From contig OZ250150.1 of NCBI GenBank assembly GCA_965237675.1, positions 4,736,001 through 4,800,000 of the forward strand: a DNA stretch of 64,000 bases, in the 5' to 3' direction. How positions within the stretch are numbered: the stretch's first letter is position 1; each line of letters opens with the position of its first letter. Positions 213 to 25,466 of this stretch are shown here, piece by piece. The position numbers and the translations under genes are program-made. The notes under the pieces were generated by a model. That model had not been told where the DNA came from, ran no database searches, and saw nothing but the letters and a program-made list of their open reading frames with translations. The DNA is from Candidatus Latescibacterota bacterium. GTDB taxonomy: Bacteria > Latescibacterota > UBA2968 > GCA-2709665.

Positions 213-327
213 AGTGGACCTCCGTACGGCCTAACTTGTGATTCTGGGTAGAAAGTTCGGCATATTCCATTCGTAGACGAAAAACTTGATGCAGTTTATT
301 CGCCGTGGATGATTGTTGAACCCCTAA

Positions 328-2015
328 CCCGATTAATTCATGAATCGTCAGATAGAGCATTTTAAGGAAGCAGAAAGAGCTTCCGAGTGAGACAAGAAAC
401 GAAAGCGCATGGGCTGTGACGGATTTGGCGTGTTCAAGCCGTTTGGGCGGCGCCTGCTTTGCCTCGTGACGTCAGGTTGACCTCGATGCCCGTGTCAAGC
501 GCACAGACTTCTCCATGACCTTTGGTGGTGGTCGATGCAAATGTGAAGGCGGGGTCAGCACGTCGATGGGTTATGGAACACCCGTTGCCAGATTATAGAG
601 GATCTTGCCATAAAGGTGTTTGAGTGGAAACGCCGTTGGCAGATGGAACTTGATCCTGGTTTTCAACTCACAAACGCGCCCGGCGACTTTCAAGAGACGA
701 TTTTGCAGGGTATTGAACTGTGCGTTGGTCCACTTCGTGCCGCGCAATCCGATTGCAGCCAGGCTGTGCATCAGGACATAGGCGGCGCTGTGGAGAAAGA
801 GACGGAAGTGATTGGCCTGGAAGGTGTGACAAGAGGTGCGATCGGAATGGAGAAAGGTCTTGTGATTCTTGATGAAGTTTTCCATCCTGCCGCGTGCGCA
901 ATAGGCGGTTTTGTAGATGAATGACGGTTGGGCGCGCTTTAGGTTGGTGACCACGAATCGGATATTGTCTCCTTGCGGCGTCACCTCCGCCTTGCAGATG
1001 ATGCGTTGTGGACACGCCCAGGTGCCGGCCTGATAGGCCCAACAGCGATAAAGGCGCACGGTTTCGCCGGAAGCAGCATACCGCGTTTTGGCCTGGTCTA
1101 TCAAGGACTGTGCCGAGCGCAGGAGTTTGGCGTTGCCGTTCTGTCCGAGGACAAAATACACATTCTGGTCCTCACACAACACGTGCACTTCCGGACACGA
1201 AAAATGCGCATCGCCACGTAACAGGATCTCCACGTCGGGCCAGGCTTTACGCAGGTAGGCGATCACCCGTTTGAGGATGGTGACGATCTCTTTACCCGCA
1301 GGCCGCCTGCCAGGACGCAAGACCGTCGTGATCAACTTGCCGGTTTGGCCTTCATAGATATGCAGGGGCTGGTAGCAATAGCCATTGAAATACGCATTGA
1401 ACAACGACAACTGTTGAGACCCATACACCTTGTCTTCCGTGTCATCGATATCCAACAGAATGGCTTCCGGCGGTTCCTCATACGAGGCGACAAACACATC
1501 CGCAAAGGCCTTGGCGATCCGATACAAATCGGTTCTGCTGATCCGGTTCTCGAACCGACTCATCGTGGGCTGACTGGCCAGATCCGCACCGGAAAGCGGC
1601 AACCGATCACAGGCCGCCTTGAAGCCGGGATCCTCGCGCAACGTCTTGCAATCGTTCGCATCCTCATAGCCACAGGCCATCTGAAAGACACGTTGTTTGA
1701 TCAGGTCCGTCATCGAATGATGTACGTAACTTTGATGTCGATGATCGGTGAGCGCCGCAACCATCCGATGCAAAATGCCGACATTGGCCTCGACCTCACG
1801 AAGCAGCATCACCCCGACGTCGGTCGTCAGCACGCCCCCGTCGAACGTGGCTTCTACCTGCCTACCAGAAAGACTTGCGAAAGACAACCTGTGATGTTTA
1901 TCTTGAACTCCCACGGTAGTTTCCTCCTGTTTCATTGTTATTAGGTTATTTGCGTAACCATAATATAATACAATGACTTGGGTATGGAAACTACCTTTTT
2001 TGTGAATTATTCAGG
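328..2015 (-). mobile_element. IS1380-family insertion sequence, copy 1 (1688 bp)
   Basis: Terminal IRs CCTGAATAATTCAC / CCCGATTAATTCAT; CTAA target duplication at 324-327 and 2016-2019; near-identical inverted copy at 17156-18843. Confidence 0.93.
571..1935 (-). CDS. IS1380-family DDE transposase
   Basis: 454 aa; motifs FDGGVLTTDVG, LDIDDT, FNAYFNGYCYQPL, LRGDAHF, YCARGRMENFIK. Confidence 0.95.
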   Translation of the reverse strand: MKQEETTVGVQDKHHRLSFASLSGRQVEATFDGGVLTTDVGVMLLREVEANVGILHRMVAALTDHRHQSYVHHSMTDLIKQRVFQMACGYEDANDCKTLREDPGFKAACDRLPLSGADLASQPTMSRFENRISRTDLYRIAKAFADVFVASYEEPPEAILLDIDDTEDKVYGSQQLSLFNAYFNGYCYQPLHIYEGQTGKLITTVLRPGRRPAGKEIVTILKRVIAYLRKAWPDVEILLRGDAHFSCPEVHVLCEDQNVYFVLGQNGNAKLLRSAQSLIDQAKTRYAASGETVRLYRCWAYQAGTWACPQRIICKAEVTPQGDNIRFVVTNLKRAQPSFIYKTAYCARGRMENFIKNHKTFLHSDRTSCHTFQANHFRLFLHSAAYVLMHSLAAIGLRGTKWTNAQFNTLQNRLLKVAGRVCELKTRIKFHLPTAFPLKHLYGKILYNLATGVP

Positions 2016-2025
2016 CTAAATGGCT

Positions 2026-4540: not shown

Positions 4541-4745
4541 TTGACCGTCACCGGGTAGCCTTTCACTTATTGTGCACTCATATTGGTCTTCTCGCCGCCA
4601 ACTCTTGCTTATACAGAAAAATCTGGTCGAAAAAACTCCGTATAGCTCATTCGCTGTCGAACAAATCCATCAAGCAAGAGAAGTGGTTCAAAGATTTTCC
4701 TGGCGGCCGGGACGGCCGCCTGTTTTGACTTTGGCGCGTGCTTTC

Positions 4746-4842
4746 TGTTAACGTTATGCCGGTTTGCGAGGGCCGAGCTGACGAGGCGTTGCCGATGGCC
4801 AAGGCGGCGACCGCAGCAGCAGCGCAAACTGTGCTGTTATCT
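4746..4842 (-). repeat. attC-like cassette recombination site
   Basis: + strand TGTTAAC...GTTATCT ends with inner IR GTTTGCG/CGCAAAC. Confidence 0.75.
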
Positions 4843-4894
4843 GACGTGCGATACCCAAATTGTATCGCCCGCAACGTAACGCGGTTCGACACGT

Positions 4895-8407: not shown

Positions 8408-8440
8408 TTTTCCCTCCTTTGGGGTAGTAGGGGCGATTTC

Positions 8441-8544
8441 CGTTAACGGCCTCGCGATATCCGACGTTGCCGGAGCGTAGCGGAGGTAATGTGCCCGGAG
8501 GGCCGAATGACCGAAGGGAGTGTAGCGGGCATCGCGTGTTAAGC
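8441..8544 (-). repeat. attC-like cassette recombination site
   Basis: CGTTAAC...GTTAAGC ends; inner IR CGCGAT/ATCGCG; internal hairpins. Confidence 0.8.
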
Positions 8545-8760
8545 GTCCGTGTTGTTTTTTGTCATCAGGAATGGAATAAAGGAGCGGACATCACTTTCTC
8601 TGTTTTTCCGGCTTTTCTGCTTTTCAACAAGAAGATTACTGTTGTACCGATTCCTCGCCAGATAGCAACTGACGGAGGTCTATGTTGATATATTCGATAT
8701 GCAGTCGAAACCAACGGATCGACACTGAATCTGAATTGTACCTTCCAACAGAATCTCCCT

Positions 8761-10603: not shown

Positions 10604-10618
10604 ACTGTCGCAAATTGC

Positions 10619-10701
10619 AGCTAACGTCTCCGCCGTGCCCGAACCACGAAAGCGGTTGCGCGAAGGGCGTAAGCCCGAAGCCGGGCACGGACGTGTTAGG
10701 C
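10619..10701 (-). repeat. attC-like cassette recombination site
   Basis: AGCTAAC...GTTAGGC; perfect 9-bp inner IR CCGTGCCCG/CGGGCACGG. Confidence 0.85.
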
Positions 10702-10790
10702 GGCGTTGCTGTTTTATATCTCAGCCCAGGAATACCCAATCTTGCCGGCTGAGAGGTACTATTCCCCAAGCTGCGAGAAGTTCGCGTCCC

Positions 10791-11603: not shown

Positions 11604-11633
11604 CTGATGTCTCCGGAGACGGGTTGCAATGCC

Positions 11634-11723
11634 GCCTAACGTTTCCGCTGTGTGCGAACCTGCCGCAGGCAGGTTGGGTCGGAGGGAGCGTAGCGACCGC
11701 AGCCGCACACGGACGTGTTAGCC
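11634..11723 (-). repeat. attC-like cassette recombination site
   Basis: GCCTAAC...GTTAGCC; inner IR GTGTGCG/CGCACAC. Confidence 0.85.
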
Positions 11724-11882
11724 GGTTGTGCCGTTTTAGGGTATCGGTAAAGCCATAACGGGGCCGACATAACCTTCTTTTGTCTTTCTTGATTTTGACC
11801 TCCAAAAACTTCCAAGATAAAATAAATCGGCGGTATTAAGTCAAACCGCCGAGGTGGAGAGTTGCTTTTTCTTCTCAATGAG

Positions 11883-12152
11883 CTACAGAAAAAAGAAACT
11901 TCCCACACAGGCCGTAACTTTGACAATACTGTAGAGAAATTCAGGTGCGAAGTCGGCTTCATTCTTCCACATTATCGTATGTAGGTCAGGGTGAACTCGG
12001 AATTTCTTGAATTCCTCTTTATCCTTCAACGACTCAAAAACGGGACCCCATAGTTCATCTTTCAACTCTACCTCTCCCTCCACACCATCACTGAATTTGA
12101 GCCAGATCACATAGTCGCCTACATAGTGAGCTTCAATAACACGGGGTATCAT
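11883..12152 (-). CDS. DUF2442 family protein (putative antitoxin), copy 1
   Basis: VIEAHYVGDYVIWLKFSDG...GPVFESLKD...TIMWKNEADFAPEFLY; stop codon changed to TGT relative to copy 2. Confidence 0.85.
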   Translation of the reverse strand: MIPRVIEAHYVGDYVIWLKFSDGVEGEVELKDELWGPVFESLKDKEEFKKFRVHPDLHTIMWKNEADFAPEFLYSIVKVTACVGSFFFL

Positions 12153-12156
12153 CTTC

Positions 12157-12414
12157 TCACTCCAAGGGTGCAATTTTATTCAACGGACGACGCTGGTCTG
12201 CGCGTTCCCAATTCTCCATCAGTTCTCTTTGGTGCAGATCATACCATTCCAGAACATGCCTCAGAGCCCGTCTAGGAAATTGGCCTGTCACAACGCCTGT
12301 CTCAATATCGACCGTGATGTCATATTCACCGTATGTGGCGTGAAAATGGGGTGGTCCGTGCTCACGATAAAACATACCAATCACGATCCCAAGAAAACGA
12401 CTAATCTCCGGCAT
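12157..12414 (-). CDS. DUF4160 family protein (putative toxin), copy 1
   Basis: MPEISRFLGIVIGMFYREHGPPHFHA...WYDLHQRELMENW...KIAPLE. Confidence 0.9.
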   Translation of the reverse strand: MPEISRFLGIVIGMFYREHGPPHFHATYGEYDITVDIETGVVTGQFPRRALRHVLEWYDLHQRELMENWERADQRRPLNKIAPLE

Positions 12415-12420
12415 AATTAT

Positions 12421-12449
12421 ATTTTACAATAATTTATAGGAAAATGCAA
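12421..12449 (-). promoter_or_regulatory. Sigma70-type promoter of the DUF4160/DUF2442 cassette (probably leaderless mRNA)
   Basis: TTGCAT-17 bp-TAAAAT with ATG 6 nt downstream and no SD; identical copy at 24028-24056. Confidence 0.65.
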
Positions 12450-12536
12450 CTACTTAATGACTTGCGCTTCAGGGTAGGGCTGGGGTTGTTTTTTGCCCCC
12501 TTTTCGATAAGGAATCAGACAAAAAAACGGCATGGC

Positions 12537-12679
12537 GGCTAACGGTCAAGCACCCACGAACCTGCCAAGCTGGCGCGGCGCTTGCCCCTCGCGATTTTCT
12601 TCAAGCAAGCGCCGTGACAGCGACAGGCAGGTTGCGCGGAGGCGCGGACGCGCCGAAGCCGGGGGTGCCGTTGTTATGC
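12537..12679 (-). repeat. attC-like cassette recombination site
   Basis: GGCTAAC...GTTATGC; GCACCC/GGGTGC and AACCTGCC/GGCAGGTT stems. Confidence 0.8.
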
Positions 12680-12801
12680 GAATCTGGCGCGGTCCCTTTC
12701 TGGCGAAGCCCTCATAGGGCCAGCGTAGAGCGGGCAACGATATCAGGTTTGTTGTGGCTGTTCCCCGAATCAGAATCAGCTGCGAAATGGTTCCGAAGTC
12801 T

Positions 12802-13254
12802 CTATCCCTCTCCAGAGTAGCCCAAAATACGCCTGAGGCGTTGCAACAAGGGTAATGTGATAGGATCCTTCAGCGCCAATGAATCCCAGGTGGTAGGTGT
12901 TCGCAGATCGAACCACCCAGTCTCTGCAATAGTGGTATGATCTGCGGTGTCGACTTCAGGTTCAATTCCTGGCTGAGGTTCTCCGGAAACAACTCGACAC
13001 CTATACGTTTTCTGCCACTCATATATCGTGTCATAAACAGGCGCCTGCTCGTCAAGGATCATCGAATCTACTTCGACACAAAGGTGCGTCTCTTCGAGCA
13101 CTTCACGCCGAATACACTCTTCCTCCGTTTCGTTCGGCTCTCGGGCTCCACCCGGGATCACCCAGAAGGTTTCTCCGGTGCCTCGATCGTTGACTTTCAG
13201 CAAAAGTAGACGATCGTCTGCAACTATTGCCGCCTGATAGCGAATGGCAGGCAT
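12802..13254 (-). CDS. NUDIX hydrolase
   Basis: Nudix box PGGAREPNETEEECIRREVLEETHL. Confidence 0.9.
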   Translation of the reverse strand: MPAIRYQAAIVADDRLLLLKVNDRGTGETFWVIPGGAREPNETEEECIRREVLEETHLCVEVDSMILDEQAPVYDTIYEWQKTYRCRVVSGEPQPGIEPEVDTADHTTIAETGWFDLRTPTTWDSLALKDPITLPLLQRLRRILGYSGEG

Positions 13255-13390
13255 CCTTGGTCCTCTCCTGGAGACAGAGTAAAGTGCATAAGAGGTTTCA
13301 CGTGACTTTCAGCGCAAGGGTGGTCTGGGTTTGATCTTGCCCGCCTTGACAAGGGGTGGGTGGATGCGGTTCCTGCTCTGCGCCAGTTTC

Positions 13391-13466
13391 GCATAACGTG
13401 CTTGATGTGCGAAGCCGCCGCAGGCGGTTTGGGCGAACGTAGTGAGCCGCACATCTTTTGTTAACG
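13391..13466 (-). repeat. attC-like cassette recombination site
   Basis: GCATAAC...GTTAACG; perfect 8-bp IR GATGTGCG/CGCACATC. Confidence 0.85.
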
Positions 13467-13567
13467 GGCGTGCGGCACGGTGGTTGGGTGGGGTTGCAGG
13501 ATGCAAGCTTGGGATGTCTTTGTCTTCAGAAAATCTACTCGATTCTCAGAACTACACACGTCATGTC

Positions 13568-13815
13568 ATCCGCCTGTGGCGGCAAGATGAAGATCATTGC
13601 CGCACTGGCCGAGCCCCTGGCCATTCGCACCTACCTCGACGGGGTCGGCCTGGCCTCACGCGCGCCGCCCATCGCGCCTCCACGCCCCCCCCTCCCTCAG
13701 ACCGAATTCGATGACGCCTCCTGACCCCGCCACCCCGAGCCTCAACACCTTGAACGGGTCCAGGGACGCTGTGTCTCCACCGGTCGTGAAGGGCAGCTCG
13801 ATCACACGAGCAAAG
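13568..13815 (+). mobile_element. Remnant of an IS91/ISCR-like transposase 3' end
   Basis: CGGKMKIIAALAEPLAIRTYLDGVGL..RAPPIAPPR resembles IS91-family transposase C-termini; boundaries approximate. Confidence 0.55.
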
Positions 13816-14086
13816 GGGCGGCCACCGACTTTTCGAACAAGACGGGCCGCGGTTTCCAAGCCAACAACGTGTTGAGTCCCGCGCCACGATATTCTTCCAC
13901 GTCGTACAACGCTCCATTTTGCGTCAGCCCGCTAATCCAAAACGGATGCGAACGAACCCAGCTTTTGCCGCGGCCGATCTTCGGTTGCTCGGCAAGGCAA
14001 CAATCCGGCGCGATCAGCGCGATTATGGCCAACGCTAGAAGAGAAATTTGGTGGGTTGATGGAACTCTCATGTTCGGGACTTCCAT
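13802..14086 (-). pseudogene. 3'-truncated secreted protein
   Basis: Signal-peptide-like LLALAIIALIAPDCCLA; abuts the 14087 gene; ends at the IS91-like remnant. Confidence 0.5.
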
Positions 14087-15646
14087 TTACTTTTTGTGAA
14101 TTCGTCCAACCGGAAGCAGTTCCACACCATCATCGATGACATACTTATCACCCTCGATTTCTGCGTCGCCGTTTTTTGTGATACGACCGACTGCGAACCT
14201 GAAGCTGAAAAGGTCCGCGTGTTTGAATTGGAACTGTAGGCGCGCGGGCTTTCCGGCGTAATCCCCGGGAGTGAGTCCGGACTGCCACGTGACCGGGTGG
14301 TCGATTTCGTCACCCCGCAGTGGCTTGCAGTCGTTCAGCGTTAGGCCCTTCAAGGGCTGGCCGTTTGCATCCTGGATTTCGACCCGGATTTCCCCGGCAG
14401 GTCGGGGCCAGGCGATGTAGTTGAGCTCCAGTTGGCTGCCGTTGAGCACAAACGGTTTTGTCACGATCGTTCCGCCGTCCGGACCGAATCGGACGGAAAC
14501 GAATCCGTCGACACGGAACGTAAAACGCCTGAGCCGCGTCCTCGGCACGAATGACTTCCTCTTCCACTCCGGGTCCTCATATCCGTACCCTTCGGTGGCG
14601 TAGACGAAGTACTCGCGCTCATTGCCACGAACCAGACCGTGGGCCATGAAGTTGGCGCGGTTGCCATCGCGTTGCTGGGGCGCACTGCCGGGAATCAATG
14701 GTTCGCGGCGTCGCAGGAACGAGTGCCCGCCGTCGCGGCTGGTCATCAGGATGGGATGGACCTGGGCGACGGCAAACCGGTCCGTGTATTCGGTGGGAAA
14801 GGCGATCAGAATGTGTGGCGCGCGTTCATACGGAAGGACGCCGTTGGTGTACATCTCCCGGTCGACCTTGTCCGAATACTTCAGCGGGACGGGTTCCGTC
14901 CAGTTCACAAAATCGTCCGACACGGCCATGTGCACATTGCGCATATAACCTTTTAGCAGATCCCGCACGAATGCGACGTAGCGGCCGCGAACCGGATCCC
15001 AGAACGCCAGGTTCTGCGAATCGAATCGCCCCTTCGTAATCACGGGCTTTTCGGTCATCAACGTCCAGTGAAGTCCGTCCGGCGACTTGAAGGGATACAT
15101 GCCGTAATCGGTGTATTTTCCCGGAATCTGGTGCGCGCCGCGAGCCCCGCGGACCAGTGCCTTGTACCGAGCGTCGGGTTTTACAGTTGGGCTGGTGTCG
15201 ATGAACGGGACCATGTCGCCGCGCCATCCTAGGCCCGTGTGGGTTCCCAGTTTGCCTTGCCATTTGTCGGTGGGAAGGTACTTTCTGCCATCCCCACCGA
15301 GGACGATGTTGTTGTCCGAGGATCCTCTGAATTTGAATAGACCAAGGTTTGGCTTCGTCCACCGGATGCCGTCGCGGCTTTCCGCGTAACACATCGGTTC
15401 GCCTCGGGCGTCTTCGCCGCTGCCGTGATGATAGCCGCGGCAGTACATGCGAAACAGATCTCCGTCCTTGAGTACCGAGACGTAGCCCAAAGAAGTGTCT
15501 TCCCAGGGCTTGTCGTTCATCAGCACGACCTCTTTGCCCAACGGCTCGTGCAGATGTTGCGCCGCGTCGCCCTCGAAGCGTTCCACAAGCCAGTCATCAA
15601 CGAACAATTCGAGCCGCAGCGGCGATGATGGATTGATGTCTGTCAT
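14087..15646 (-). CDS. GH32/GH43-like beta-propeller glycoside hydrolase-like protein
   Basis: YAESRDGIRWTKP, SPDGLHW, FDSQNLAFWD, SDDFVNW; C-terminal beta-sandwich ending DLFSFRF. Confidence 0.75.
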   Translation of the reverse strand: MTDINPSSPLRLELFVDDWLVERFEGDAAQHLHEPLGKEVVLMNDKPWEDTSLGYVSVLKDGDLFRMYCRGYHHGSGEDARGEPMCYAESRDGIRWTKPNLGLFKFRGSSDNNIVLGGDGRKYLPTDKWQGKLGTHTGLGWRGDMVPFIDTSPTVKPDARYKALVRGARGAHQIPGKYTDYGMYPFKSPDGLHWTLMTEKPVITKGRFDSQNLAFWDPVRGRYVAFVRDLLKGYMRNVHMAVSDDFVNWTEPVPLKYSDKVDREMYTNGVLPYERAPHILIAFPTEYTDRFAVAQVHPILMTSRDGGHSFLRRREPLIPGSAPQQRDGNRANFMAHGLVRGNEREYFVYATEGYGYEDPEWKRKSFVPRTRLRRFTFRVDGFVSVRFGPDGGTIVTKPFVLNGSQLELNYIAWPRPAGEIRVEIQDANGQPLKGLTLNDCKPLRGDEIDHPVTWQSGLTPGDYAGKPARLQFQFKHADLFSFRFAVGRITKNGDAEIEGDKYVIDDGVELLPVGRIHKK

Positions 15647-15742
15647 CGGTTTACACCTCAGGTGAAATGCTGGATCGACGTGTATCAGCGATTCTTTGCT
15701 TTTGGCGGCCAGGGATGGCCGCTCTGTCTTTGTGCCGCTTTC

Positions 15743-15843
15743 GGTTAACGGTTCTTGGCTTTACGACGTGGGCCAGTCCCAAAGGCCCATGTGCCCGCAG
15801 GGCCGAGGGGCGGATGCCCCGAAGCGTAAAGCCGGTGTTAGCC
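15743..15843 (-). repeat. attC-like cassette recombination site
   Basis: GGTTAAC...GTTAGCC; perfect 9-bp IR GGCTTTACG/CGTAAAGCC. Confidence 0.85.
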
Positions 15844-15922
15844 GTCGTTATTAATTCGTATCCGTTCATTGTCGGGGCCTTATGTATCAAAATGTAGCCG
15901 CTAACTCATTCAGACAGACTTC

Positions 15923-16843
15923 TCATTCACCAAAAAACGGGTACGGCTCGCCGGCTTCCACCAGCCTTTGTACCAGACTCGAGTACTTCAACACCTCCGT
16001 CAGCCGGGTGCGCCAATGCGGGGCGTAGAAGCCGACGAATTCCTGGAAGAACGCTCGCGCATCCTCACTGACGCCATCGAAGTATTGCGGCAGCAAAAAC
16101 CATGGCTGGTCACTGGCGTAGTTCAGCCCCCGCTGGCGCATCGTGAACTCTGCGGCGGCCCGTTTTTTTACCGAGATCATCAACGAGCGCCTGAGCTTGT
16201 CGGTGTGATAGCGGCCCCGATGAATGCACAACTGGGTAAACAGCACCGCGTCACCGGGTTCCTGGTGGAGACGAACGGCGCCAGGCATATCGTTCGAGCG
16301 GTTGTGGATCCCATCATCGGCGACGCAGATCGCGTGCTCTTCGGGGGAGTAGTCACGCAGGTGAGACCCCGGCACCACTTCGAGATCGTCGGTAGGGACC
16401 AATGCGATTTGCATCTGCAACCCGGCTCCGGTCTCCGGTCTCCGGGATACGTCTGCTTCTGCACCGATCTTGTCCTTGTGCCAAAATCCGTCCTGGCTTT
16501 CTCCGGTCGGATTACAGTAGAGACTGCTCAAGGCGAAGAGGAATTCTTCATCCAAGGCTGCGCTCAGCGATTCGACAACTTGGGGCGACCCCATGGCATT
16601 GAGCAGAAAGGCGAGATCGTCGGGGTGATCGCGGTGATATTCCGGGTCGTTCAGGTGCCTCATGTAATTGGCCTGGGGCCCCACCGGTGGATTGTCACAG
16701 CGAGGAGCGCGCCGCCACTGTTCCAGCACTCGCTCACAGATCTCGCGCAGCCGTTTTGTCGTCGCTGCGTCGAACAAACCGCGCACCACGGCGTAAGAGT
16801 GTTGGCGTAGCTGCCCAGGGCAGGGTTCAGTAGCAATACTCAT
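15923..16843 (-). CDS. Phytanoyl-CoA dioxygenase (PhyH) family Fe/2OG oxygenase
   Basis: WHKD (HxD), VVPGSH, PGDAVLF...IHRG. Confidence 0.85.
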   Translation of the reverse strand: MSIATEPCPGQLRQHSYAVVRGLFDAATTKRLREICERVLEQWRRAPRCDNPPVGPQANYMRHLNDPEYHRDHPDDLAFLLNAMGSPQVVESLSAALDEEFLFALSSLYCNPTGESQDGFWHKDKIGAEADVSRRPETGAGLQMQIALVPTDDLEVVPGSHLRDYSPEEHAICVADDGIHNRSNDMPGAVRLHQEPGDAVLFTQLCIHRGRYHTDKLRRSLMISVKKRAAAEFTMRQRGLNYASDQPWFLLPQYFDGVSEDARAFFQEFVGFYAPHWRTRLTEVLKYSSLVQRLVEAGEPYPFFGE

Positions 16844-16954
16844 TATATCCTCTTGTGTTGCTGTAAGAATTGCGTCGCAATTGGACTGTAAAAGTGCGGA
16901 CAGGCTGTCTCGTGCTGTCTAACTACGTATGGAAATCAATGCTCTATTAATTGC

Positions 16955-17065
16955 GGCTAACGTTCGTTCTGGCCACTTGCGAACCCGCCGAAGCGTCAGC
17001 GTAGGCGGGTTGCCGTCAGGCCGAAGGGAGCGTAAGCGACCGAAGCGCAAGTGGACCTGTTAGCA
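16955..17065 (-). repeat. attC-like cassette recombination site
   Basis: GGCTAAC...GTTAGCA; perfect 9-bp IR CCACTTGCG/CGCAAGTGG. Confidence 0.85.
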
Positions 17066-17155
17066 GCCGGTGCTTCGGTTCTTTGCCTCAAAAAGCCTTT
17101 CCATCACTTCCAAGCATCCACTCCAATTATCCCTGAATCTTTCGTGGACTTCTAG

Positions 17156-18843
17156 CCTGAATAATTCACAAAAAAGGTAGTTTCCATACCCAAGTCATTG
17201 TATTATATTATGGTTACGCAAATAACCTAATAACAATGAAACAGGAGGAAACTACCGTGGGAGTTCAAGATAAACATCACAGGTTGTCTTTCGCAAGTCT
17301 TTCTGGTAGGCAGGTAGAAGCCACGTTCGACGGGGGCGTGCTGACGACCGACGTCGGGGTGATGCTGCTTCGTGAGGTCGAGGCCAATGTCGGCATTTTG
17401 CATCGGATGGTTGCGGCGCTCACCGATCATCGACATCAAAGTTACGTACATCATTCGATGATGGACCTGATCAAACAACGTGTCTTTCAGATGGCCTGTG
17501 GGTATGAGGATGCGAATGATTGCAAGACGTTACGCGAGGACCCCGGCTTCAAGGCGGCCTGTGATCGGTTGCCGTTGTCTGGCGCGGACCTGGCCAGTCA
17601 GCCCACGATGAGTCGGTTCGAGAACCGCATCAGCAGAACCGATTTGTATCGGATCGCCAAGGCCTTTGCGGATGTGTTTGTCGCCTCGTATGAGGAACCG
17701 CCGGAAGCCATTCTGTTGGACATCGATGACACCGAAGACAAGGTGCATGGGTCTCAACAGTTGTCGTTGTTCAATGCGTATTTCAATGGCTATTGCTACC
17801 AGCCCCTGCATATCTATGAAGGCCAAACCGGCAAGTTGATCACGACGGTCTTGCGTCCTGGCAGGCGGCCTGCGGGTAAAGAGATCGTCACCATCCTCAA
17901 ACGGGTGATCGCCTACCTGCGTAAAGCCTGGCCCGACGTGGAGATCCTGTTACGTGGCGATGCGCATTTTTCGTGTCCGGAAGTGCACGTGTTGTGTGAG
18001 GAAGAAGATGTGTATTTTGTCCTCGGACAGAACGGCAACGCCAAACTCCTGCGGAAGGCACAGTCCTTGATAGACCAGGCCAAAACGCGGTATGCCGATT
18101 CCGGAGAAACCGTGCGCCTTTATCGCTGTTGGGCCTATCAGGCCGGCACCTGGGCGTGTCCACAACGCATCGTCTGCAAGGCGGAAGTGACACCGCAAGG
18201 TGTCAATATCCGATTCGTGGTCACCAACCTGAAGCGCGCCCAACCGTCATTCATCTACAAAACCGCCTATTGCACACGCGGCAGGATGGAAAACTTCATC
18301 AAAAATCACAAGACCTTTCTCCATTCCGATCGCACCTCTTGTCACACCTTCCAGGCCAATCACTTCCGTCTCTTTCTCCACAGCGCCGCCTATGTCCTGA
18401 TGCACAGCCTGGCTGCAATCGGATTGCGCGGCACGAAGTGGACCAACGCACAGTTCAATACCCTGCAAAATCGTCTCTTGAAAGTCGCCGGGCGCGTTTG
18501 TGAGTTGAAAACTAAAATCAAGTTCCATCTGCCAACGGCGTTTCCACTCAAACACCTTTATGGCAAGATCCTCTATAATCTGGCAACGGGTGTTCCATAA
18601 CCCATCGACGTGCTGACCCCGCCTTCACATTTGCATCGACCACCACCAAAGGTCATGGAGAAGTCTGTGCGCTTGACACGGGCATCGAGGTCAACCTGAC
18701 GTCACGAGGCAAAGCAGGCGCCGCCCAAACGGCTTGAACACGCCAAATCCGTCACAGCCCATGCGCTTTCGTTTCTTGTCTCACTCGGAAGCTCTTTCTG
18801 CTTCCTTAAAATGCTCTATCTGACGATTCATGAATTAATCGGG
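17156..18843 (+). mobile_element. IS1380-family insertion sequence, copy 2 (1688 bp)
   Basis: Same IRs as copy 1; CTAG duplication at 17152-17155 and 18844-18847. Confidence 0.93.
17236..18600 (+). CDS. IS1380-family DDE transposase
   Basis: 454 aa, a few substitutions relative to 571-1935. Confidence 0.95.
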   Translation: MKQEETTVGVQDKHHRLSFASLSGRQVEATFDGGVLTTDVGVMLLREVEANVGILHRMVAALTDHRHQSYVHHSMMDLIKQRVFQMACGYEDANDCKTLREDPGFKAACDRLPLSGADLASQPTMSRFENRISRTDLYRIAKAFADVFVASYEEPPEAILLDIDDTEDKVHGSQQLSLFNAYFNGYCYQPLHIYEGQTGKLITTVLRPGRRPAGKEIVTILKRVIAYLRKAWPDVEILLRGDAHFSCPEVHVLCEEEDVYFVLGQNGNAKLLRKAQSLIDQAKTRYADSGETVRLYRCWAYQAGTWACPQRIVCKAEVTPQGVNIRFVVTNLKRAQPSFIYKTAYCTRGRMENFIKNHKTFLHSDRTSCHTFQANHFRLFLHSAAYVLMHSLAAIGLRGTKWTNAQFNTLQNRLLKVAGRVCELKTKIKFHLPTAFPLKHLYGKILYNLATGVP

Positions 18844-19079
18844 CTAGGATCCAAAGACCTTCGTAGTCTTTCAGATGAGGTATCGCGTCGGAATAGGGGA
18901 CCCTCCCCCATCCAGGTGGCAGATGGAGGTCGGTCTCACCATATCATGATTCGAACTGGGAAGACATTCGACTGCCCCTCTACTCCAAGATTCGACCTCT
19001 GTGGCTCTGTGGTGAGGCCTTACGATCCCGCTTCCGGGAAGGACGTTGGGATAACAGCCTGGCAAGGTCGATGATTCAA

Positions 19080-21338
19080 TCAGAACTCAGCGGCAATCAT
19101 CGCGTACTGTCCAATGTTCGTTAATATGGTTTCCAAGTGGTTTCCGTCGAACGTGACCTCCAGGTCATCTCCCGTGCAAACGTCCCACACGCGACGAGGA
19201 GTGCCCCGCTCCGTGAGCTGCCAGCGCAGGTTCACTTCGGGTATCGTGGTCACATAGTCAAACTGTGGGCTGAAGCGCGGCCAGATCCCCGGCAGATGCT
19301 CGACGCGCTCGCCGGTGTGATTGATCAGAAACAACACTTGGCTTCCCGGTTTCTCATTCGGAATCATCACGAGTTGGTTCGGGCCATCGGTCATCAGAGG
19401 CCGGCCCTCCGGGTAGAGCCAATCCACCACGGCGCCCAGAAGATCGCGGACCACCAGCAGGCGATATTCGAAATGAAGCTCCTCCACCGGCGCGGCCAGA
19501 TAGACGACGCGGCCCTTGCCAACCGTCCGGCAGGTGACGGCGGGACACAGAGCGTCGTCCTCGCGCCCGCCGAAGACGATGTTCGCCACCACGTCGGTTC
19601 CCGGCCGCGCTTGGACGAACTCGAACCGATTGAGCGGCCACAGCTCATGCGAGCACCCCTCGGCCAGCCATTGACCTGGAACGCAGCAGCCGTACGTGTC
19701 GAACGTCCCGGCGGCCCAGAGGTGTTGTTCGTAATCAGCGAATTGGTCGGGGTTCGGGTCCACGCGGTCCACGCCCAGAAGGTCCGCCAAGGCGAAGTTG
19801 TCGCGCATCTCATCGGGCTCGGCACCGTACAGGCTCGTCCGGTACGTCGCCAGGAGCCGCCCGCCCGCCTTCACATATTCCGTGATGCCTTCGACTTCCT
19901 CCCGCGTGAGATGGCCGACGTTGGGCAGAAGCAGAACGGGATACTTTGCCAACGCCGCTGGATCGGAGAGAACCCGCTCCTCGATCACCGATGTCGGCAA
20001 ATGGTTGGCCAGCATGGTCGAGAAGGCCCCGCGACGGCAGGATTGCTGCGGGGGCGTGCGCACGAGATAGCCCGCCTCGGAGAGCGGGGCCTCGAGCTCC
20101 CCCGGACGGTCGGCGAGGTCCTGCTTGGACTGGCCGATGACATCGTGCCGACGATCGCGCATCACCAGGGGCTCGGCGCGGAACCGCACCCGCTCGAGCA
20201 TCTCATACACCCGCACCGGCAAAACAAACGGAATAGCAACAAACGGTGACGGGTGGAGATCTTCGAAGAGTGATTCGTTCCTCTCCAGGATCTCAAGGAA
20301 CTCCGCCAGCTCACGATTGGCTTTATGGGGAGGCGACAGCCAAAGGTTCACGCCGCACGCCACCAGGACGGCCCCTCCGGAAGCAAAGCTGGCTGCCGCC
20401 TCCTCGACGAGTTCCATGCCGAAGCACTGCGCCCGCGACCAGCCCGTCAAGGCGCCGACGTATTGCCACATGGCCCAACCCGACGACTCGGCCAGACTGG
20501 CCGCCTCGAGCCGATGAAGGAAGTCGCCCCCGGCCTCGTAGAGGAATCCATCGTGCACCTCCACGATCCTGCGTTCGGGCCAGTCGCCCACACCCTGGCC
20601 GTGCGTCAGCACCGGGATGTCCTTCTTCTTTCGCGTCGCGGCGACGAATTCGAGAAAGACATCGCCGACGATCCTGCCGTACTGCAGGCTCCACTCTTCC
20701 AGCATCTCCTGGTCTTCCCGAGGCAGGCTGTGCGGATCGGGTGCATACGGCATTGGGCAGCCGAATTGCCTCTCGAACTTCTCGAGGCAATAGTCGCAGT
20801 AGCACAAGGGCGACTGCGGGGTGTGGTGCGAATGGTAAGGACAGGCAGAATCGGTGTAGATCGCGTCGACGTCGTGGTCCACCACTTGTGCGATGAAAGC
20901 GCAGATGGCCTCTCGGTACGGTGTGTTGAAGCAGACGTGCCGGTGAAATCCGCCGCCGTGGTGCCTCAGGACAGGAGCGTCGCCTTCGGGGCTGGGGCGG
21001 TACATCCACTCCGGATGATGGATCAGCATGTTGTCTTCGGGAATAATGTGCCCCACGGGAATGTACCCGATGACGCGCACGTCCCGCGCATGGGCCTCGG
21101 CGATGGTCTCGGCGAGCAGGTCGCGCTCACTTAATTGAGGGTGCGGGGGAAAGAACTCATTGGGGAAGACCGCCCATTTGCCCGCGCTGCCGAACCAAAT
21201 GGCGTTGGCGTGGTATTTCCGCACGACATCGACGAGCTGCTTCGCGTCAAAGTCGATGTCGGGCCAGAAGGGCGGGTGGTATTGCTCTATCTGAAAGGTG
21301 CGCGCCCGCCGTACCCACTCGTGACTTGGCTTGATCAT
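19080..21338 (-). CDS. Glycoside-hydrolase-like protein (GHL6/GH42-like TIM barrel plus beta-galactosidase trimerisation domain)
   Basis: HPQLSERDLLAETIAEAHARDVRVIGY, CFNTPY, CYCDYC..KF, YPVLLLPN..YVKAGGRLLAT, GKGRVVYL; GGAGG RBS before ATG 21338. Confidence 0.75.
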   Translation of the reverse strand: MIKPSHEWVRRARTFQIEQYHPPFWPDIDFDAKQLVDVVRKYHANAIWFGSAGKWAVFPNEFFPPHPQLSERDLLAETIAEAHARDVRVIGYIPVGHIIPEDNMLIHHPEWMYRPSPEGDAPVLRHHGGGFHRHVCFNTPYREAICAFIAQVVDHDVDAIYTDSACPYHSHHTPQSPLCYCDYCLEKFERQFGCPMPYAPDPHSLPREDQEMLEEWSLQYGRIVGDVFLEFVAATRKKKDIPVLTHGQGVGDWPERRIVEVHDGFLYEAGGDFLHRLEAASLAESSGWAMWQYVGALTGWSRAQCFGMELVEEAAASFASGGAVLVACGVNLWLSPPHKANRELAEFLEILERNESLFEDLHPSPFVAIPFVLPVRVYEMLERVRFRAEPLVMRDRRHDVIGQSKQDLADRPGELEAPLSEAGYLVRTPPQQSCRRGAFSTMLANHLPTSVIEERVLSDPAALAKYPVLLLPNVGHLTREEVEGITEYVKAGGRLLATYRTSLYGAEPDEMRDNFALADLLGVDRVDPNPDQFADYEQHLWAAGTFDTYGCCVPGQWLAEGCSHELWPLNRFEFVQARPGTDVVANIVFGGREDDALCPAVTCRTVGKGRVVYLAAPVEELHFEYRLLVVRDLLGAVVDWLYPEGRPLMTDGPNQLVMIPNEKPGSQVLFLINHTGERVEHLPGIWPRFSPQFDYVTTIPEVNLRWQLTERGTPRRVWDVCTGDDLEVTFDGNHLETILTNIGQYAMIAAEF

Positions 21339-21700
21339 AGCGATGACCTCCAAAATCTGTACCGTCTTTTTTTACCCGCAGAGCCCGCGGAGAACGCAGA
21401 GAACGGCCTTCCATGATTCACGGCCGCTCATCATGATCGAGAAGCCGAGAAATATCAGGCTGAACCCAGCCAGCAGCAGCCCAAGCTCGGCTGTCGCCGT
21501 CAACTCAGGATCGTCCCGAGCAACAGGAGCAAAGTCAGAGAATGGACGAAAAACGCTCTGGTTGCCAGCGCTCCCACGTTTAACCCGAGGACCTCAACGA
21601 CCCTCCCCGCTGTCATGAGGATGGAAGCAGGAGTGCAGGTAACGCCGCAACCAGAGCGGCACGGAGGTCATTCGCAGTCATTGGTTTCGACTGGCATGGC

Positions 21701-21834
21701 TGCTAACTACGGGATTACCGAACAGTTACGGTAATGCGTACCTGATCCGAAGATCTGCGAACGTTCGGGAACATCCCACTTTGAAGCTTGTAGCCCGAAC
21801 ATGTTCAGGAATGCTTCCTATGGTGGCATCGTCT
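21701..21834 (-). other. attI-like primary recombination site 1
   Basis: Single GTTAGCA core (21707-21701) with no attC hairpin; palindromes ATTACCG-N8-CGGTAAT, CGAACGTTCG, GAACATGTTC; lies between the integrase stop and the first cassette; conserved at 24144-24278. Confidence 0.75.
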
Positions 21835-22836
21835 CTAACCAAAAACTGCCCCCCTTTCTTCCATCAATGCATCCAGCGGGCTCTGGATTTTCGCGAGATC
21901 CCGATTCGTCACCCGAGTATAGATCTGTGTGGTTTTTGGGCTTGCATGCCCCAGCAACACCTGGATATATCGCAGGTCGGTCCCGCGTTCAAGCAGGTGT
22001 GTCGCAAAGGAATGCCGTAGCGTATGTATCGATATCCGCTTGTTAATATTGGCTTTCTTGCAAGCCCGGTCAAATGCTTTCTGAACTGATCGCTCGGTCA
22101 AATGCCGTCCCGGCCTTGCGCCCGGGAACAACCATGTTTCGGGTGGATATTGGCGCCTGTAGTCTTGAACCGCCTTCTGTGCGACCGCGGAGAGCATTGT
22201 GTAGCGATCCTTCCGGTGCTTGCCCTGACGAACATGAACCAGCTTTCGGTCCAGGTCGATGTCTTCGACCTTTAGCCGGACCACTTCACCCAATCGGAGG
22301 CCTCCGGAATAGGTCAACAGAATGATCGCCCGATGCTTCAGGTTTTCTACCGCATCCAGTAACCGAAGCACTTCGGGCCGGCTCAACACAGTGGGCAATT
22401 TGTGCTCTTTTTTCGGACGGGGCAGGTTTTCAAGCGGATGCTGATCTTTCAACACTCGAAGGAACAGGAATTTCAATGCACTTACGCACTGATTGACGTA
22501 ACTGTGCGAGGCTCCCGTTTCAAGGAGGTGATACACGTAATTTCGGACCTCCATCTCCCCAAAAGATCGAGGTGCCTTGCGGCAATAATTGGCAAATCGT
22601 CTGACGTGACCAAGGTACGCTTTTCGCGTTTTCGCGCGATACCCCCTGGGTTGTCTCACTCTATATTGGCACGTAGGGAAGGCCGGTTGTTCATCTGCCA
22701 TAAGCATTCGCGCATCGGTAACTGAGCGCATTCGGGGGCTGAAAAGCTTAAAGAGAATCCCCACAAAAACGGGAGCAAGAATGAGCAAAGCAATCACTAC
22801 AATTGAAGGATCGGGAACCATCGAATTCCCTTGCAA
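21835..22836 (-). CDS. Tyrosine recombinase (N-terminal SAM-like domain, integron-integrase-related), lacking the IntI-specific insertion; N-terminus apparently chimeric
   Basis: RGY..KTRKAYLGHVRRF N-domain; catalytic GLRLGE (R), GKHRKDR (K), [13 protein letters not shown] (HxxR), LLGH and TQIYT (Y) all intact. Confidence 0.9.
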   Translation of the reverse strand: MQGNSMVPDPSIVVIALLILAPVFVGILFKLFSPRMRSVTDARMLMADEQPAFPTCQYRVRQPRGYRAKTRKAYLGHVRRFANYCRKAPRSFGEMEVRNYVYHLLETGASHSYVNQCVSALKFLFLRVLKDQHPLENLPRPKKEHKLPTVLSRPEVLRLLDAVENLKHRAIILLTYSGGLRLGEVVRLKVEDIDLDRKLVHVRQGKHRKDRYTMLSAVAQKAVQDYRRQYPPETWLFPGARPGRHLTERSVQKAFDRACKKANINKRISIHTLRHSFATHLLERGTDLRYIQVLLGHASPKTTQIYTRVTNRDLAKIQSPLDALMEERGAVFG

Positions 22837-22977
22837 CTGGTCAACCCTGAGCCCGGATTCTGTAATAGAGATTGGCTATCTGTGTACAAGCTAGACGTCT
22901 GTCGGAAGGTCTTTGTTATCGTGTTCAAATAGAAACCGGTGGATCTGTCAAGAACGAAAACGGCGCTGACATTCGTT

Positions 22978-23310
22978 CTAATCTTGCGTTTTCGTTTTAT
23001 GGGAAGCACCCACAGTCTCGTGGGTCTCCTTTAGTTCATCGCCTATCATGTCTATGCGGTTCGTCACTACAGAGATAGTCTGAACTCTCTCGTCGATACT
23101 TTCGATTGTCGAAAGGAGAGCCATAGAAGTGCCGCCCTGTTCACGCACTAGCTCGCTCTGTAACTGCAACTCGGTTAAGACGTGCTCCATTCGCGCACTG
23201 GCTTGCGACAACTGTCCTCGCATCGCCTCGATTTGAGCTAGTTGGCTTTCCTCTATGCCGCACGACTTAATCGAGGTTACGAGTAGAAGGAGGAATCCAC
23301 TCAATCCCAC
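22978..23310 (-). CDS. Hypothetical membrane-anchored coiled-coil protein (possibly 5'-truncated)
   Basis: Hydrophobic N-terminus followed by a Q/E/L-rich helix; no clear RBS. Confidence 0.4.
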   Translation of the reverse strand: MGLSGFLLLLVTSIKSCGIEESQLAQIEAMRGQLSQASARMEHVLTELQLQSELVREQGGTSMALLSTIESIDERVQTISVVTNRIDMIGDELKETHETVGASHKTKTQD

Positions 23311-23513
23311 CGTCGCGCTGAACTTTAATACATCTAGGATCGTCGTCTAGAGGGTAAAGCCATAACGGGGCCGACATAACCTTCTTTTGGCTTTCTTGAT
23401 TTTGACCTCCAAAAACTTCCAAGATAAAATAAATCGGCGGTATTAAGTCAAACCGCCGAGGTGGAGAGTTACTTTTTCTTCTCTATGAGCTACAGAAAAA
23501 AGAAACTTCCCAC

Positions 23514-23759
23514 TCAGGCCGTAACTTTGACAATACTGTAGAGAAATTCAGGTGCGAAGTCGGCTTCATTCTCCCACATTATCGTATGTAGGTCAGGGTG
23601 AACTCGGAATTTCTTGAATTCCTCTTTATCCTTCAACGACTCAAAAACGGGACCCCATAGTTCATCTTTCAACTCTACCTCTCCCTCCACACCATCACTG
23701 AATTTGAGCCAGATCACATAGTCGCCTACATAGTGAGCTTCAATCACACGGGGTATCAT
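23514..23759 (-). CDS. DUF2442 family protein, copy 2
   Basis: Same as 11883-12152 but with an intact TGA. Confidence 0.85.
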   Translation of the reverse strand: MIPRVIEAHYVGDYVIWLKFSDGVEGEVELKDELWGPVFESLKDKEEFKKFRVHPDLHTIMWENEADFAPEFLYSIVKVTA

Positions 23760-23763
23760 CTTC

Positions 23764-24021
23764 TCACTCCAAGGGTGCAATTTTATTCAACGGACGACGC
23801 TGCTCTGCGCGTTCCCAATTCTCCATCAGTTCTCTTTGGTGCAGATCATACCATTCCAGAACATGCCTCAGAGCCCGTCTAGGAAATTGGCCTGTCACAA
23901 CGCCTGTCTCAATATCGACCGTGATGTCATATTCACCGTATGTGGCGTGAAAATGGGGTGGTCCGTGCTCACGATAAAACATACCAATCACGATCCCAAG
24001 AAATCGACTAATCTCCGGCAT
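23764..24021 (-). CDS. DUF4160 family protein, copy 2
   Basis: One amino-acid difference from copy 1. Confidence 0.9.
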   Translation of the reverse strand: MPEISRFLGIVIGMFYREHGPPHFHATYGEYDITVDIETGVVTGQFPRRALRHVLEWYDLHQRELMENWERAEQRRPLNKIAPLE

Positions 24022-24143
24022 AATTATATTTTACAATAATTTATAGGAAAATGCAACTACTTAATGACTTGCGCTTCAGGGTAGGGCTGGGGTTGTCTTT
24101 TGCCCCCTTTTCGATAAGGAATCAGACAAAAAAACCGCATGGC

Positions 24144-24278
24144 GGCTAACTAAGGTATTACCGAACAGTTACGGTAATACGTAACAGATCTGAGAATCTC
24201 CGAACGTTCGGGAACATCCCACCTTGAAGCTTGCAGCCCGAACATGTTCAGAAATGCTGTCCTATGGTGGCATCGTCT
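24144..24278 (-). other. attI-like site 2
   Basis: Homologous to 21701-21834 from immediately after AAC; GTATTACCG-N8-CGGTAATAC, CGAACGTTCG and GAACATGTTC retained. Confidence 0.75.
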
Positions 24279-24501
24279 CTAATCAATACCTGCCTCCCTT
24301 TCATCCATCAATGCATCCAGCGGACTCCGGATCTTTGCGAGATCCCGATTCGTCACCCGAGTATAGATCTGTGTGGTCTTTGGGCTTACGTGCCCGAGCA
24401 ACACCTGGATATATCGCAGGTCCGTCCCGCGTTCAAGCAGGTGTGTCGCAAAGGAATGCCGTAGCGTGTGTATCGATATCCGCTTGTTAATATTGGCTTT
24501 T
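24279..24501 (-). pseudogene. C-terminal stub of a second, closely related tyrosine recombinase
   Basis: [45 protein letters not shown]; homology to 21835-22836 ends near 24501. Confidence 0.85.
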
Positions 24502-24603
24502 CTCGAAATCCGGTCAATCGTTTTCTGTACCAACTGCTCGTTGAATTGTCTCTCCAGCCTCGCGCCGAAACGTCAACCGGCGGTCACTCTTACCGCGCCA
24601 ACA

Positions 24604-25350
24604 TCACCTGTCCCCCCACCTATTGCGCAACTCGATGACGGTCAGCATGGTCACCTCCCCGGTGGGGTCTAATCCGGCATCGGCCTGAAACTTTTTCAAC
24701 GCCTCCCGGGTGGCCTCGTTCAGGACCCCGTCAACCGGTCCGGTGTCGTATCCCATCCGATTCAGGATCGTCTGCACCTCGTAGTTGTGCTCCGGCCCGG
24801 CGGGAATATCCGACTCCGATTCGGGTTCTTCCTGCTTCTCTTCAACCACCGCCGTATCCTCAGAGATCAGCACCCAGCGCAGGAGGCGGATCTCAAAGAG
24901 TACGGCCGCGGCTCCAACAATCCATAGCAGGCCGAATAGCAGCGCAATCCCCCATCGAATTGCCGGGTCCCCTTCCCCGCCAGCCGCCGGGTCGGAGCGA
25001 TCGAATACTTCGGGCGCAATCAGATAGCGCAGGCACAACCAGAGGCCGACATGCAGGAACGCGAGAACGATCGGCGTTCGGACCGGGACCCTGAGAGGCG
25101 ACCGTACAGGGCGCCAGAACCGGGCGATTGCAAGTGTCCAGAGATCGACCAGCGTCAGAAACAGAGGCAATCCCGCGAGGAAGCCGACGGCCCGATCCGC
25201 GGTATCGGCGCCCCGCATCCATGCCCACCATGCCGCGGCCAGAAACGCCACCGCCAGCACGGTCCATGTGCCAACACGAAGCAGCAAGGCGGCCCGTGAC
25301 CGCTCGGGTCTGGGCGTGGACGCGCCGGATTCAGGTTGAAGTCGGTTCAT
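24604..25350 (-). CDS. Membrane protein with C-terminal peptidoglycan-binding (PG_binding_1) domain
   Basis: About four TM segments, then VQTILNRMGYDTGPVDGVLNEATREALKKFQ..GLDPTG. Confidence 0.8.
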   Translation of the reverse strand: MNRLQPESGASTPRPERSRAALLLRVGTWTVLAVAFLAAAWWAWMRGADTADRAVGFLAGLPLFLTLVDLWTLAIARFWRPVRSPLRVPVRTPIVLAFLHVGLWLCLRYLIAPEVFDRSDPAAGGEGDPAIRWGIALLFGLLWIVGAAAVLFEIRLLRWVLISEDTAVVEEKQEEPESESDIPAGPEHNYEVQTILNRMGYDTGPVDGVLNEATREALKKFQADAGLDPTGEVTMLTVIELRNRWGDR

Positions 25351-25466
25351 TTACGGTACTCCGCTCGGGGCATACTTCCGCATAGCCCTTCCAGGACGCT
25401 GTTCACTTGGCTATATTGTACGGTACCCGGCCCCATCGTGTCCGGAAATGAAACGGATTACGAACC

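Follow-up and report, generated by a model that had tools for sequence, protein, structure and literature searches.

A sedentary, integron-like cassette array in Candidatus Latescibacterota with a probable non-canonical integrase

We analysed a 64,000-nucleotide stretch of the chromosome of a Candidatus Latescibacterota bacterium (hereafter the window; C1:4736001-4800000 of a 5.6-Mb genome), in which a toxin-antitoxin-like (TA-like) gene pair occurs twice, once between two attC-like sites and once beside the remnant of a tyrosine-recombinase gene. The window is likely to be the head of a sedentary chromosomal integron-like cassette array with a non-canonical integrase. The cassettes, all on the minus strand, would each consist of an open reading frame (ORF) or ORF pair and a structured site of 90-165 nucleotides with TAAC...GTTA boxes. 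The tyrosine-recombinase gene lies upstream of these cassettes and points the same way, and the ~127 nucleotides between its stop codon and the first cassette would form the primary, attI-like site. Cassettes would be exchanged by site-specific recombination with the crossover in or at the TAAC/GTTA core, which would explain how one DUF4160/DUF2442 cassette can stand behind an attC-like site at one position and immediately beside an attI-like site at another. The recombinase itself belongs to an Xer/IntI-like clade that lacks the additional domain of IntI and has, when intact, an N-terminal domain of ~70 residues.

The evidence begins with the TA-like repeat. Self-BLAST of the window aligned 11746-12543 with 23353-24150 at 98.7% identity (788/798 nucleotides, 10 differences). 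At the high-coordinate end the copies share the terminus ...GCATGGCGGCTAAC (...GGCTAAC), and identity stops there. Past TAAC, copy 1 continues as GGTCAAGCACCC... in the attC-like site 12526-12688, which scored 61.3 bits with our covariance model R1, and copy 2 continues as TAAGGTATTACCGAACAGTTACGGTAAT... in a conserved 127-nucleotide site located after the stop codon of a truncated tyrosine-recombinase gene. The original prediction, that two near-identical stretches part company at the AAC core with an attC hairpin beyond one and an attI-like sequence beyond the other, is thus borne out, and in the aligned TA/attI junctions identity does not run on past TAAC. At the low-coordinate end, identity stops at 11746/23353, which in copy 1 is 13 nucleotides short of the attC-like site that the covariance model places at 11623-11732, or 22 nucleotides past the GTTAGCC box at 11717-11723; beyond this point copy 1 runs into that site and copy 2 into unrelated DNA. 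The encoded proteins pass the Pfam cut-offs (DUF4160 at 73.4 bits, DUF2442 at 45.6 and 47.9 bits) and miss the NCBIfam equivalog cut-offs for DhiT and DhiA (76.9 versus 100 bits and 36 versus 200 bits), so the pair is related to the type II toxin-antitoxin system DhiT/DhiA, and a toxin-antitoxin function is presumed from this relationship. On the minus strand at 24133-24147, the start of the TA-like cassette has a hairpin followed by a T run that overlaps the GTTAGCC core and could shield the cassette from read-through.

Other cassettes break at the same core. The attI-like sequence is present in seven copies in the genome, each directly after (Y)TAAC and each with a different sequence opposite; some of the copies lie inside arrays and some have no recombinase remnant. 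The second site in the window contains a hairpin, GGTATTACCG-N8-CGGTAATAC, and two GAAC-N-GTTC palindromes. The regions next to the two recombinase copies, 21694-22122 and 24137-24566, align over 430 nucleotides at 87.9% identity and carry different cassettes past TAAC. It had been claimed that their homology begins right after AAC; the different first cassettes stand, but the similarity begins ~14 nucleotides earlier, because both cassettes open with a similar GCATGGC(T/G)GCTAAC. The glycosidase-like cassette at the first attI-like site is 96.7% identical over 2760 nucleotides to C1 1409466-1412215, where the same ...GGCTGCTAAC end precedes an attC-like site. The PhyH-like cassette recurs at C1 4724208-4725442 (99.8%, matching window 15730-16964) and in the related loci L017 and L018, and in L019 it abuts an attI-like site, with identity ending at TAAC. 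Furthermore, the window, L010, L015 and L019 share a chromosomal flank (24604-27000, 83-87% identical), and the orthologous attI-like site next to it holds a different first cassette in each of the four; both this and the breaks at TAAC are predicted by site-specific exchange at the core. The proposed crossover at the GTT core therefore finds support in the junctions of three cassette families in several genomes. Going by these comparative junctions and by analogy with integrons, the crossover would take place in the TAAC/GTTA core, probably on a folded strand; on the same basis we infer catalysis by this recombinase clade, the exact cleavage position and the use of folded single strands.

Because the argument turns on a repeat, we asked what public sequencing data say about its second copy. 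Contigs from public runs were aligned to 22300-25200; runs X14 and X15 come from different studies, and one run may be the source sample. In X14 a 261-nucleotide contig (24106-24366) and in X15 a 124-nucleotide contig (24106-24229) bridge the junction between the second TA-like copy and the attI-like site, at 24150/24151, with 0 differences. A further 0-difference contig, of 1227 nucleotides, runs from 22300 to 23382 and so joins the 704-nucleotide side to the repeat, which it enters by 30 nucleotides, 1 short of our bridging rule. In X14 the word depth of the TA unitig is 91.5, versus ~42 for the unique flanks, and at 23353 and 24150 the unitig has loose ends that read into the contexts of copy 1. 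Run X17 has the TA-like cassette joined at TAAC to a third partner, an attC-like site of the 13380 type. An assembly artefact at the second copy or its junction would fit with a 798-nucleotide repeat that short-read contigs collapse and that no public-run contig over 22300-25200 spans in full; with the junction bridged in two runs of two studies, a repeat depth about twice that of the flanks, the contig reaching in from the other side and 10 positions at which the two copies differ, we regard such an artefact as scarcely credible. The TA duplicate is well supported, short of long-read proof, and mis-assembly, which would have undone the original prediction, is not favoured: contigs bridge the junction, although none crosses the whole repeat. 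No loose end among those listed spells a circular TA-like cassette, in contig-level data from which rare forms could escape.

The attC-like sites form a coherent structural family. R1 finds eight sites in the window between 4735 and 17074, all on the plus strand and all on the cassette side of the first attI-like site, and none at 25000-64000, the 39 kb to the right of the array. A hidden Markov model built on five window sites recovers 23 genomic sites, which fall into three regions and in 22 cases share one strand. Together with related loci we collected 55 unique sites; in an alignment of 30, compensatory changes occur at 15 of 23 consensus pairs, and TAAC and GTTA are invariant or nearly so. 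The outermost element is a 5-bp stem, TAACG/TGTTA; inward of it follow four unpaired bases on one arm only, an 11-bp covarying stem with a single bulged base, and two inner hairpins, for a total of 90-165 nucleotides. Measured against an RYYYAAC...GTTRRRY-type core, the sites have near-invariant TAAC/GTTA and asymmetric arms, as recognised by our own models. Some cassette ends depart from this pattern. In L019 a 24-nucleotide mini-site, TTAAC...GTTAG, replaces the attC-like site of the PhyH-like cassette (window 15837), and in L015 it is inverted. The attC-like sites of the two glycosidase-like copies (16944-17074 and C1 1409356-1409461) have only ~26 nucleotides around GTTAG in common.

The recombinase is recognisably of the IntI/Xer type and lacks the segment that defines IntI. 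The ORF 21835-22836 contains Phage_integrase and SAM_4 domains. Against the IntI profile TIGR02249 it scores 214 bits, versus a cut-off of 265, in two stretches that omit profile positions 175-234, and the region of the IntI additional domain measures 27 residues, versus 69 in VchIntIA (2a3v). This same structure, 2a3v, is the best match in both sequence and fold, ahead of XerA, and phmmer gives the family higher scores with IntI (146-162 bits) than with the Xer proteins of the host (85-89 bits). With the XerA-type model NF040815 (cut-off 220) the window protein scores 218.6 bits and protein P0002 222.7, and the scores against TIGR02224 (194 versus 335 bits) and TIGR02225 (186 versus 330 bits) do not allow assignment to XerC or XerD. 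Homologues, mostly 360-390 residues long, cover no more than the C-terminal 80% of the window protein and show no relation to its first ~60 residues, indicating that the gene was cut at ~22648, from where the open frame extends to 22836 through unrelated sequence; a loose end in X15 falls exactly at 22648 and spells the intact continuation of the gene. Intact relatives have an extra N-terminal domain of ~70 residues, confidently modelled as beta-beta-alpha-beta-beta-alpha, for which the Pfam family HARP gives only sub-threshold matches (E 0.0098-0.057) and a protein atlas gives unnamed clusters at 0.89-0.90. A third copy of the gene, a C-terminal stub, lies 4 kb left of the window; the three remnants are 88-92% identical and all within one array region.

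Three more conventional assignments were considered. A canonical integron was rejected for want of the IntI-specific domain. Dimer resolution by Xer at dif was rejected since separate Xer-like ORFs of 320 and 301 residues lie elsewhere in the genome and the present gene heads a cassette array. A canonical IntI acting in trans was rejected since none was found in this genome or in the 13 searched genomes of its family. Within the phylum, 14 of 121 genomes have a canonical IntI. Near such intI genes R1 found no site in eight stretches (L054-L061), a weak result since R1 was trained on the present lineage only.

The arrangement of recombinase and sites extends to relatives. In the family, 20 of 22 genomes have attC-like sites (0-72 each), and in the order 15 of 53 have the recombinase or its remnants. 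The genomes richest in sites all have a recombinase match, and several with 5-21 sites have none; these genomes are kin, and no statistic was drawn from them. The simplest layout is that of L010, in which the conserved flank is followed by a recombinase (residues 1-373; 94% identical), the attI-like site and attC-like sites; this recombinase appears as two matches in the genome search and may carry a frameshift. At two loci of genome G121, with 46-50% protein identity, arrays lie downstream of the gene on the expected strand. Further afield we assembled 79 related public loci, which divide into 35 long forms, with the N-terminal domain, and 44 short forms. Run on 49 of these loci, R1 found 14 sites in other phyla, in 7 of 35 long-form or intermediate loci (from Gemmatimonadaceae, Ignavibacteriota, Spirochaetota and Bacteroidota); each of the 14 lies downstream with the expected orientation, and the 14 short-form loci gave 0 sites. 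A model-free search for TAAC-stem...stem-GTTA, 10 kb to each side, gave 27 downstream versus 1 upstream hits at 14 long-form or intermediate loci, and 1 downstream and 0 upstream at 10 short-form loci. Four more long-form loci, on contigs that end soon after the gene, have one site each in the short downstream stretch. The cores of the sites in other phyla are the same as here, as in GCCTAAC...GTTAGGC of L073. All relatives fall below the TIGR02249 cut-off, with 213-251 bits split in two stretches. The family also has members in the Candidate Phyla Radiation (CPR). Of eight CPR or short-form archaeal loci, six (L108, L109, L120, L124, L125 and L136) have no TAAC...GTTA hairpin, L127 has three and L138 one; the archaeal long-form locus L070 has none.

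More tentatively, and with slightly more doubt than confidence, we propose that the long-form recombinases are the integrases of a second widespread integron lineage, with members in Latescibacterota, Gemmatimonadota, Ignavibacteriota, Spirochaetota and Bacteroidota at the least. Such integrases would capture cassettes after their own stop codon, the N-terminal domain would take the place of the I2 helix in reading folded, branched sites, and they would have a common origin with the accessory recombinases that IS91-family elements carry.

A number of observations weigh against an integron-like array with this recombinase as its integrase. All three recombinase copies in the genome are truncated, copy 1 at its 5' end and the others to stubs, so that the window shows past rather than current activity; the system is decayed in this genome. 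Copy 2 of the TA-like cassette has no attC of its own, and the distal cassette ends are not uniform. In a tree of 28 recombinases, which recovers the canonical IntI clade at 100/100, the position of the family relative to Xer is unsettled and long branches are flagged. Many genomes of the genus with arrays of 3-21 sites have no recombinase match at E <= 1e-30, and in L052 (G057) three attC-like sites point the opposite way from a short-form recombinase. The majority of breakpoints between related arrays fall outside TAAC, and in one genome the same kind of junction is made by a transposable element; these last two points bear on specific alternatives and are taken up below. The original prediction of cassette movement into the recombinase-adjacent site thus holds as regards exchange at the core and finds no support as regards clean insertion beside an active recombinase, given a second copy without attC and a truncated gene.

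One alternative is ordinary segmental duplication or homologous recombination among paralogues of the platform (the recombinase with its attI-like site), in which case the break at TAAC would merely be where conserved blocks meet. Among the right-hand homology breakpoints of related arrays, 66 of 75 are not site-specific and correspond to insertion sequence (IS) ends, intra-cassette deletions and fading similarity between recombinase paralogues. The low-coordinate repeat end is not at a site core, either. In L013 the TA-704-nucleotide-recombinase block is kept, yet an attC-like site precedes the TA-like cassette and the recombinase is a mosaic of two alleles; this block order is a circular permutation that appears best explained by homologous recombination inside the recombinase gene. 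However, the remaining 9 of 75 distinct breakpoints fall at TAAC, versus 1.07% of positions expected by chance, an enrichment of ~11-fold over background (the binomial tail of 1.2e-7 presumes independent boundaries, which these are not), and three unrelated cassettes end at one 4-nucleotide core beside unrelated partners. Moreover, the attI regions differ by 12% and the TA-like copies by 1.25%, so the TA junction is younger than the platform duplication. We therefore think duplication a highly unlikely account of the junctions. From sequence comparison, site-specific exchange is clearly present, yet it is not the main source of difference among the related arrays.

A second alternative is that the platform moved, the attI-like site and recombinase being the end of an IS91-related mobile element that inserts beside the TAAC/GTTA of attC-like sites. 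ISfinder is said to describe IS91-family members with an accessory tyrosine recombinase. Genome G106, with 72 attC-like hits the richest of its family, has its only relatives of the recombinase in six copies (L062-L067) of a 2.5-kb unit that encodes a 283-residue recombinase, the closest short-form relative (51% identical to ours), and a Y2_Tnp/Zn_Tnp_IS91 transposase; one end of the unit falls precisely at TAAC, each of the six times next to a different sequence within or alongside attC arrays, so that insertion of an element can make a TAAC junction. A Y2 transposase directly follows 23 of the 44 short-form relatives. The attI-like copies that lie within arrays or have no recombinase remnant fit this alternative as well, as does L050, where at reverse-complement coordinate 2463 a 43-nucleotide attI fragment stands alone between two TAAC cores, rather like a tiny cassette. 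For the window, however, we judge a moving platform unlikely, because no such transposase is present, the platform is syntenic and the first cassette changes at a fixed attI-like site: tblastn with the G106 transposase found no Y2 transposase in the genome, none is adjacent to any of the 35 long-form loci, and the flank-adjacent platform occupies the same chromosomal place in four genomes with four different first cassettes. In addition, no residue of a split attC is seen 5' of the locus with the intact recombinase, and the attI-like sequence has no similarity to the G106 terminus.

Returning to an integron-like array, its features are collected in Table 1. Read from right to left, the window comprises the conserved flank, recombinase stub 2, the second attI-like site joined to the TA-like cassette, 704 nucleotides of unique DNA, the 5'-cut recombinase copy 1, the first attI-like site joined to the glycosidase-like cassette, more cassettes, and finally the TA-like cassette between two attC-like sites; the third platform remnant lies further left. 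The two copies fit equally a cassette that moved to the second attI-like site, a TA-headed block that was brought in there, and a platform that moved next to the cassette. The loss of the copy 2 attC is a later or separate event, not a site-specific one, and the three platforms were likewise stacked by events that are not site-specific.

Table 1. Coordinates of features in the window
Feature	Position	Strand	Remarks
TA-like cassette copy 1	11746..12543	-	DUF4160 12157-12414, DUF2442 11883-12173; attC-like site on either side
TA-like cassette copy 2	23353..24150	-	DUF4160 23764-24021, DUF2442 23514-23780; TAAC 24147-24150 joined to attI-like site 2; no own attC
attI-like site 1	21708..21834	-	TAAC junction 21704-21707
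attI-like site 2	24151..24278	-	between recombinase-stub stop codon and TAAC junction
Recombinase copy 1	21835..22648	-	homologous to residues ~106-373 of intact 376-residue relatives
Recombinase stub 2	24279..24566	-	last ~95 codons; adjoins conserved chromosomal flank
First cassette at attI-like site 1	18960..21707	-	glycosidase-like ORF of 757 residues, 19080-21353
PhyH-like cassette	15732..16961	-	own attC-like site 15732-15852
Unique DNA, 704 nucleotides	22649..23352	-	replaces recombinase 5' end and attC of TA-like copy 2
ORF of 110 residues	22978-23310		in the 704-nucleotide unique DNA; no family assignment
attC-like site	4735..4851	+	
attC-like site	8430..8553	+	weaker, 29 bits
attC-like site	10608..10710	+	
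attC-like site	11623..11732	+	distal to TA-like copy 1
attC-like site	12526..12688	+	TAAC side of TA-like copy 1
attC-like site	13380..13475	+	site type joined to TA in X17
attC-like site	16944..17074	+	
IS with DDE_Tnp_1_4 transposase	17153..18848	+	in distal part of glycosidase-like cassette; absent there in L013

The conserved flank, shared by at least four genomes, contains a gene for a peptidoglycan-binding membrane protein (24604-25350) and a family-B DNA polymerase gene (25467-27593; 708 residues, with exonuclease and RNase H-like domains). Between the window and L013 or L015-L019, identity is 97-99.8% in multi-cassette blocks and only 83-87% in the chromosomal flank, which suggests recent exchange of array segments between species. 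The 1.7-kb DDE_Tnp_1_4 IS is present in three copies (window 323-2018 and 17153-18848, and C1 4727938-4729631); the two window copies are 97.9% identical and inverted, and the insertion at 17153 is missing from the otherwise 99% identical L013. A consensus scan of 21500-24700 for a cassette promoter (Pc) gave three promoter-like sites, versus 3.1 expected from shuffled sequence.

Integron integrases are defined by, and searched for with, an extra segment that is held to be necessary for recognition of folded attC sites. Here, textbook cassette borders occur beside a recombinase family without the IntI segment, and the window provides a natural map of the crossover. An active enzyme would mean that cassettes can be captured without the IntI-specific domain and that surveys which insist on this domain overlook a class of gene-capture platforms in little-studied phyla. 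If the long-form recombinases do represent a second integron lineage, a good part of the arrays now classed as attC-site clusters that have no integron integrase (CALIN) would turn out to possess an integrase. The relation to IS91-associated recombinases offers a tangible clue to the origin or movement of such platforms.

Cury et al. 2016 (PMC4889954) define IntI by an extra region of ~35 residues and report 50 recombinases without it near attC sites, only four of which were placed between IntI and Xer, each with <3 attC sites; such proteins were judged not to be IntI. IntegronFinder 2.0 (PMC9024848) keeps the same definition. Our literature search, largely of abstracts, returned no account of attC-type arrays headed by a recombinase lacking the IntI domain; supplementary figure S1 of PMC4889954, which places 21 such recombinases, may include a member of this family.

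Among known systems, the array resembles sedentary chromosomal integrons in its mostly co-oriented cassettes, each with an imperfect-palindromic, structured site with an AAC/GTT core, in a primary site beside a tyrosine-recombinase gene, in cassette borders that fall at the GTT core for three families, in TA-like cassettes and in site sequences that are homogeneous within the lineage. It differs from them in that the recombinase lacks the IntI domain and its intact relatives have an N-terminal domain, in that the attI-like site follows the stop codon rather than lying upstream of the gene, and in that a pair of inner hairpins lends the sites a three-way shape. 'Inverted integrase' integrons likewise have recombinase and cassettes co-oriented; as described in PMC4889954, their members are IntI by the IntI-specific profile, which the enzyme here is not. 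With IS91-family elements that have an accessory recombinase, the array shares a recombinase 38-57% identical over the core-binding and catalytic domains and an end at a fixed tetranucleotide, TAAC in G106; unlike them it has no Y2 HUH transposase (PF04986, PF14319), and its platform keeps to one locus, syntenic across genomes, instead of occurring in several copies. Archaeal XerA and bacterial XerC/XerD with dif have the same fold and two-domain core, but the gene here heads a cassette array and the Xer-like genes are separate. Lastly, with no IntI, arrays such as this one would probably be filed as CALIN by the usual software criteria; they differ from CALIN in that a specific recombinase and an attI-like site, both conserved, stand at their head.

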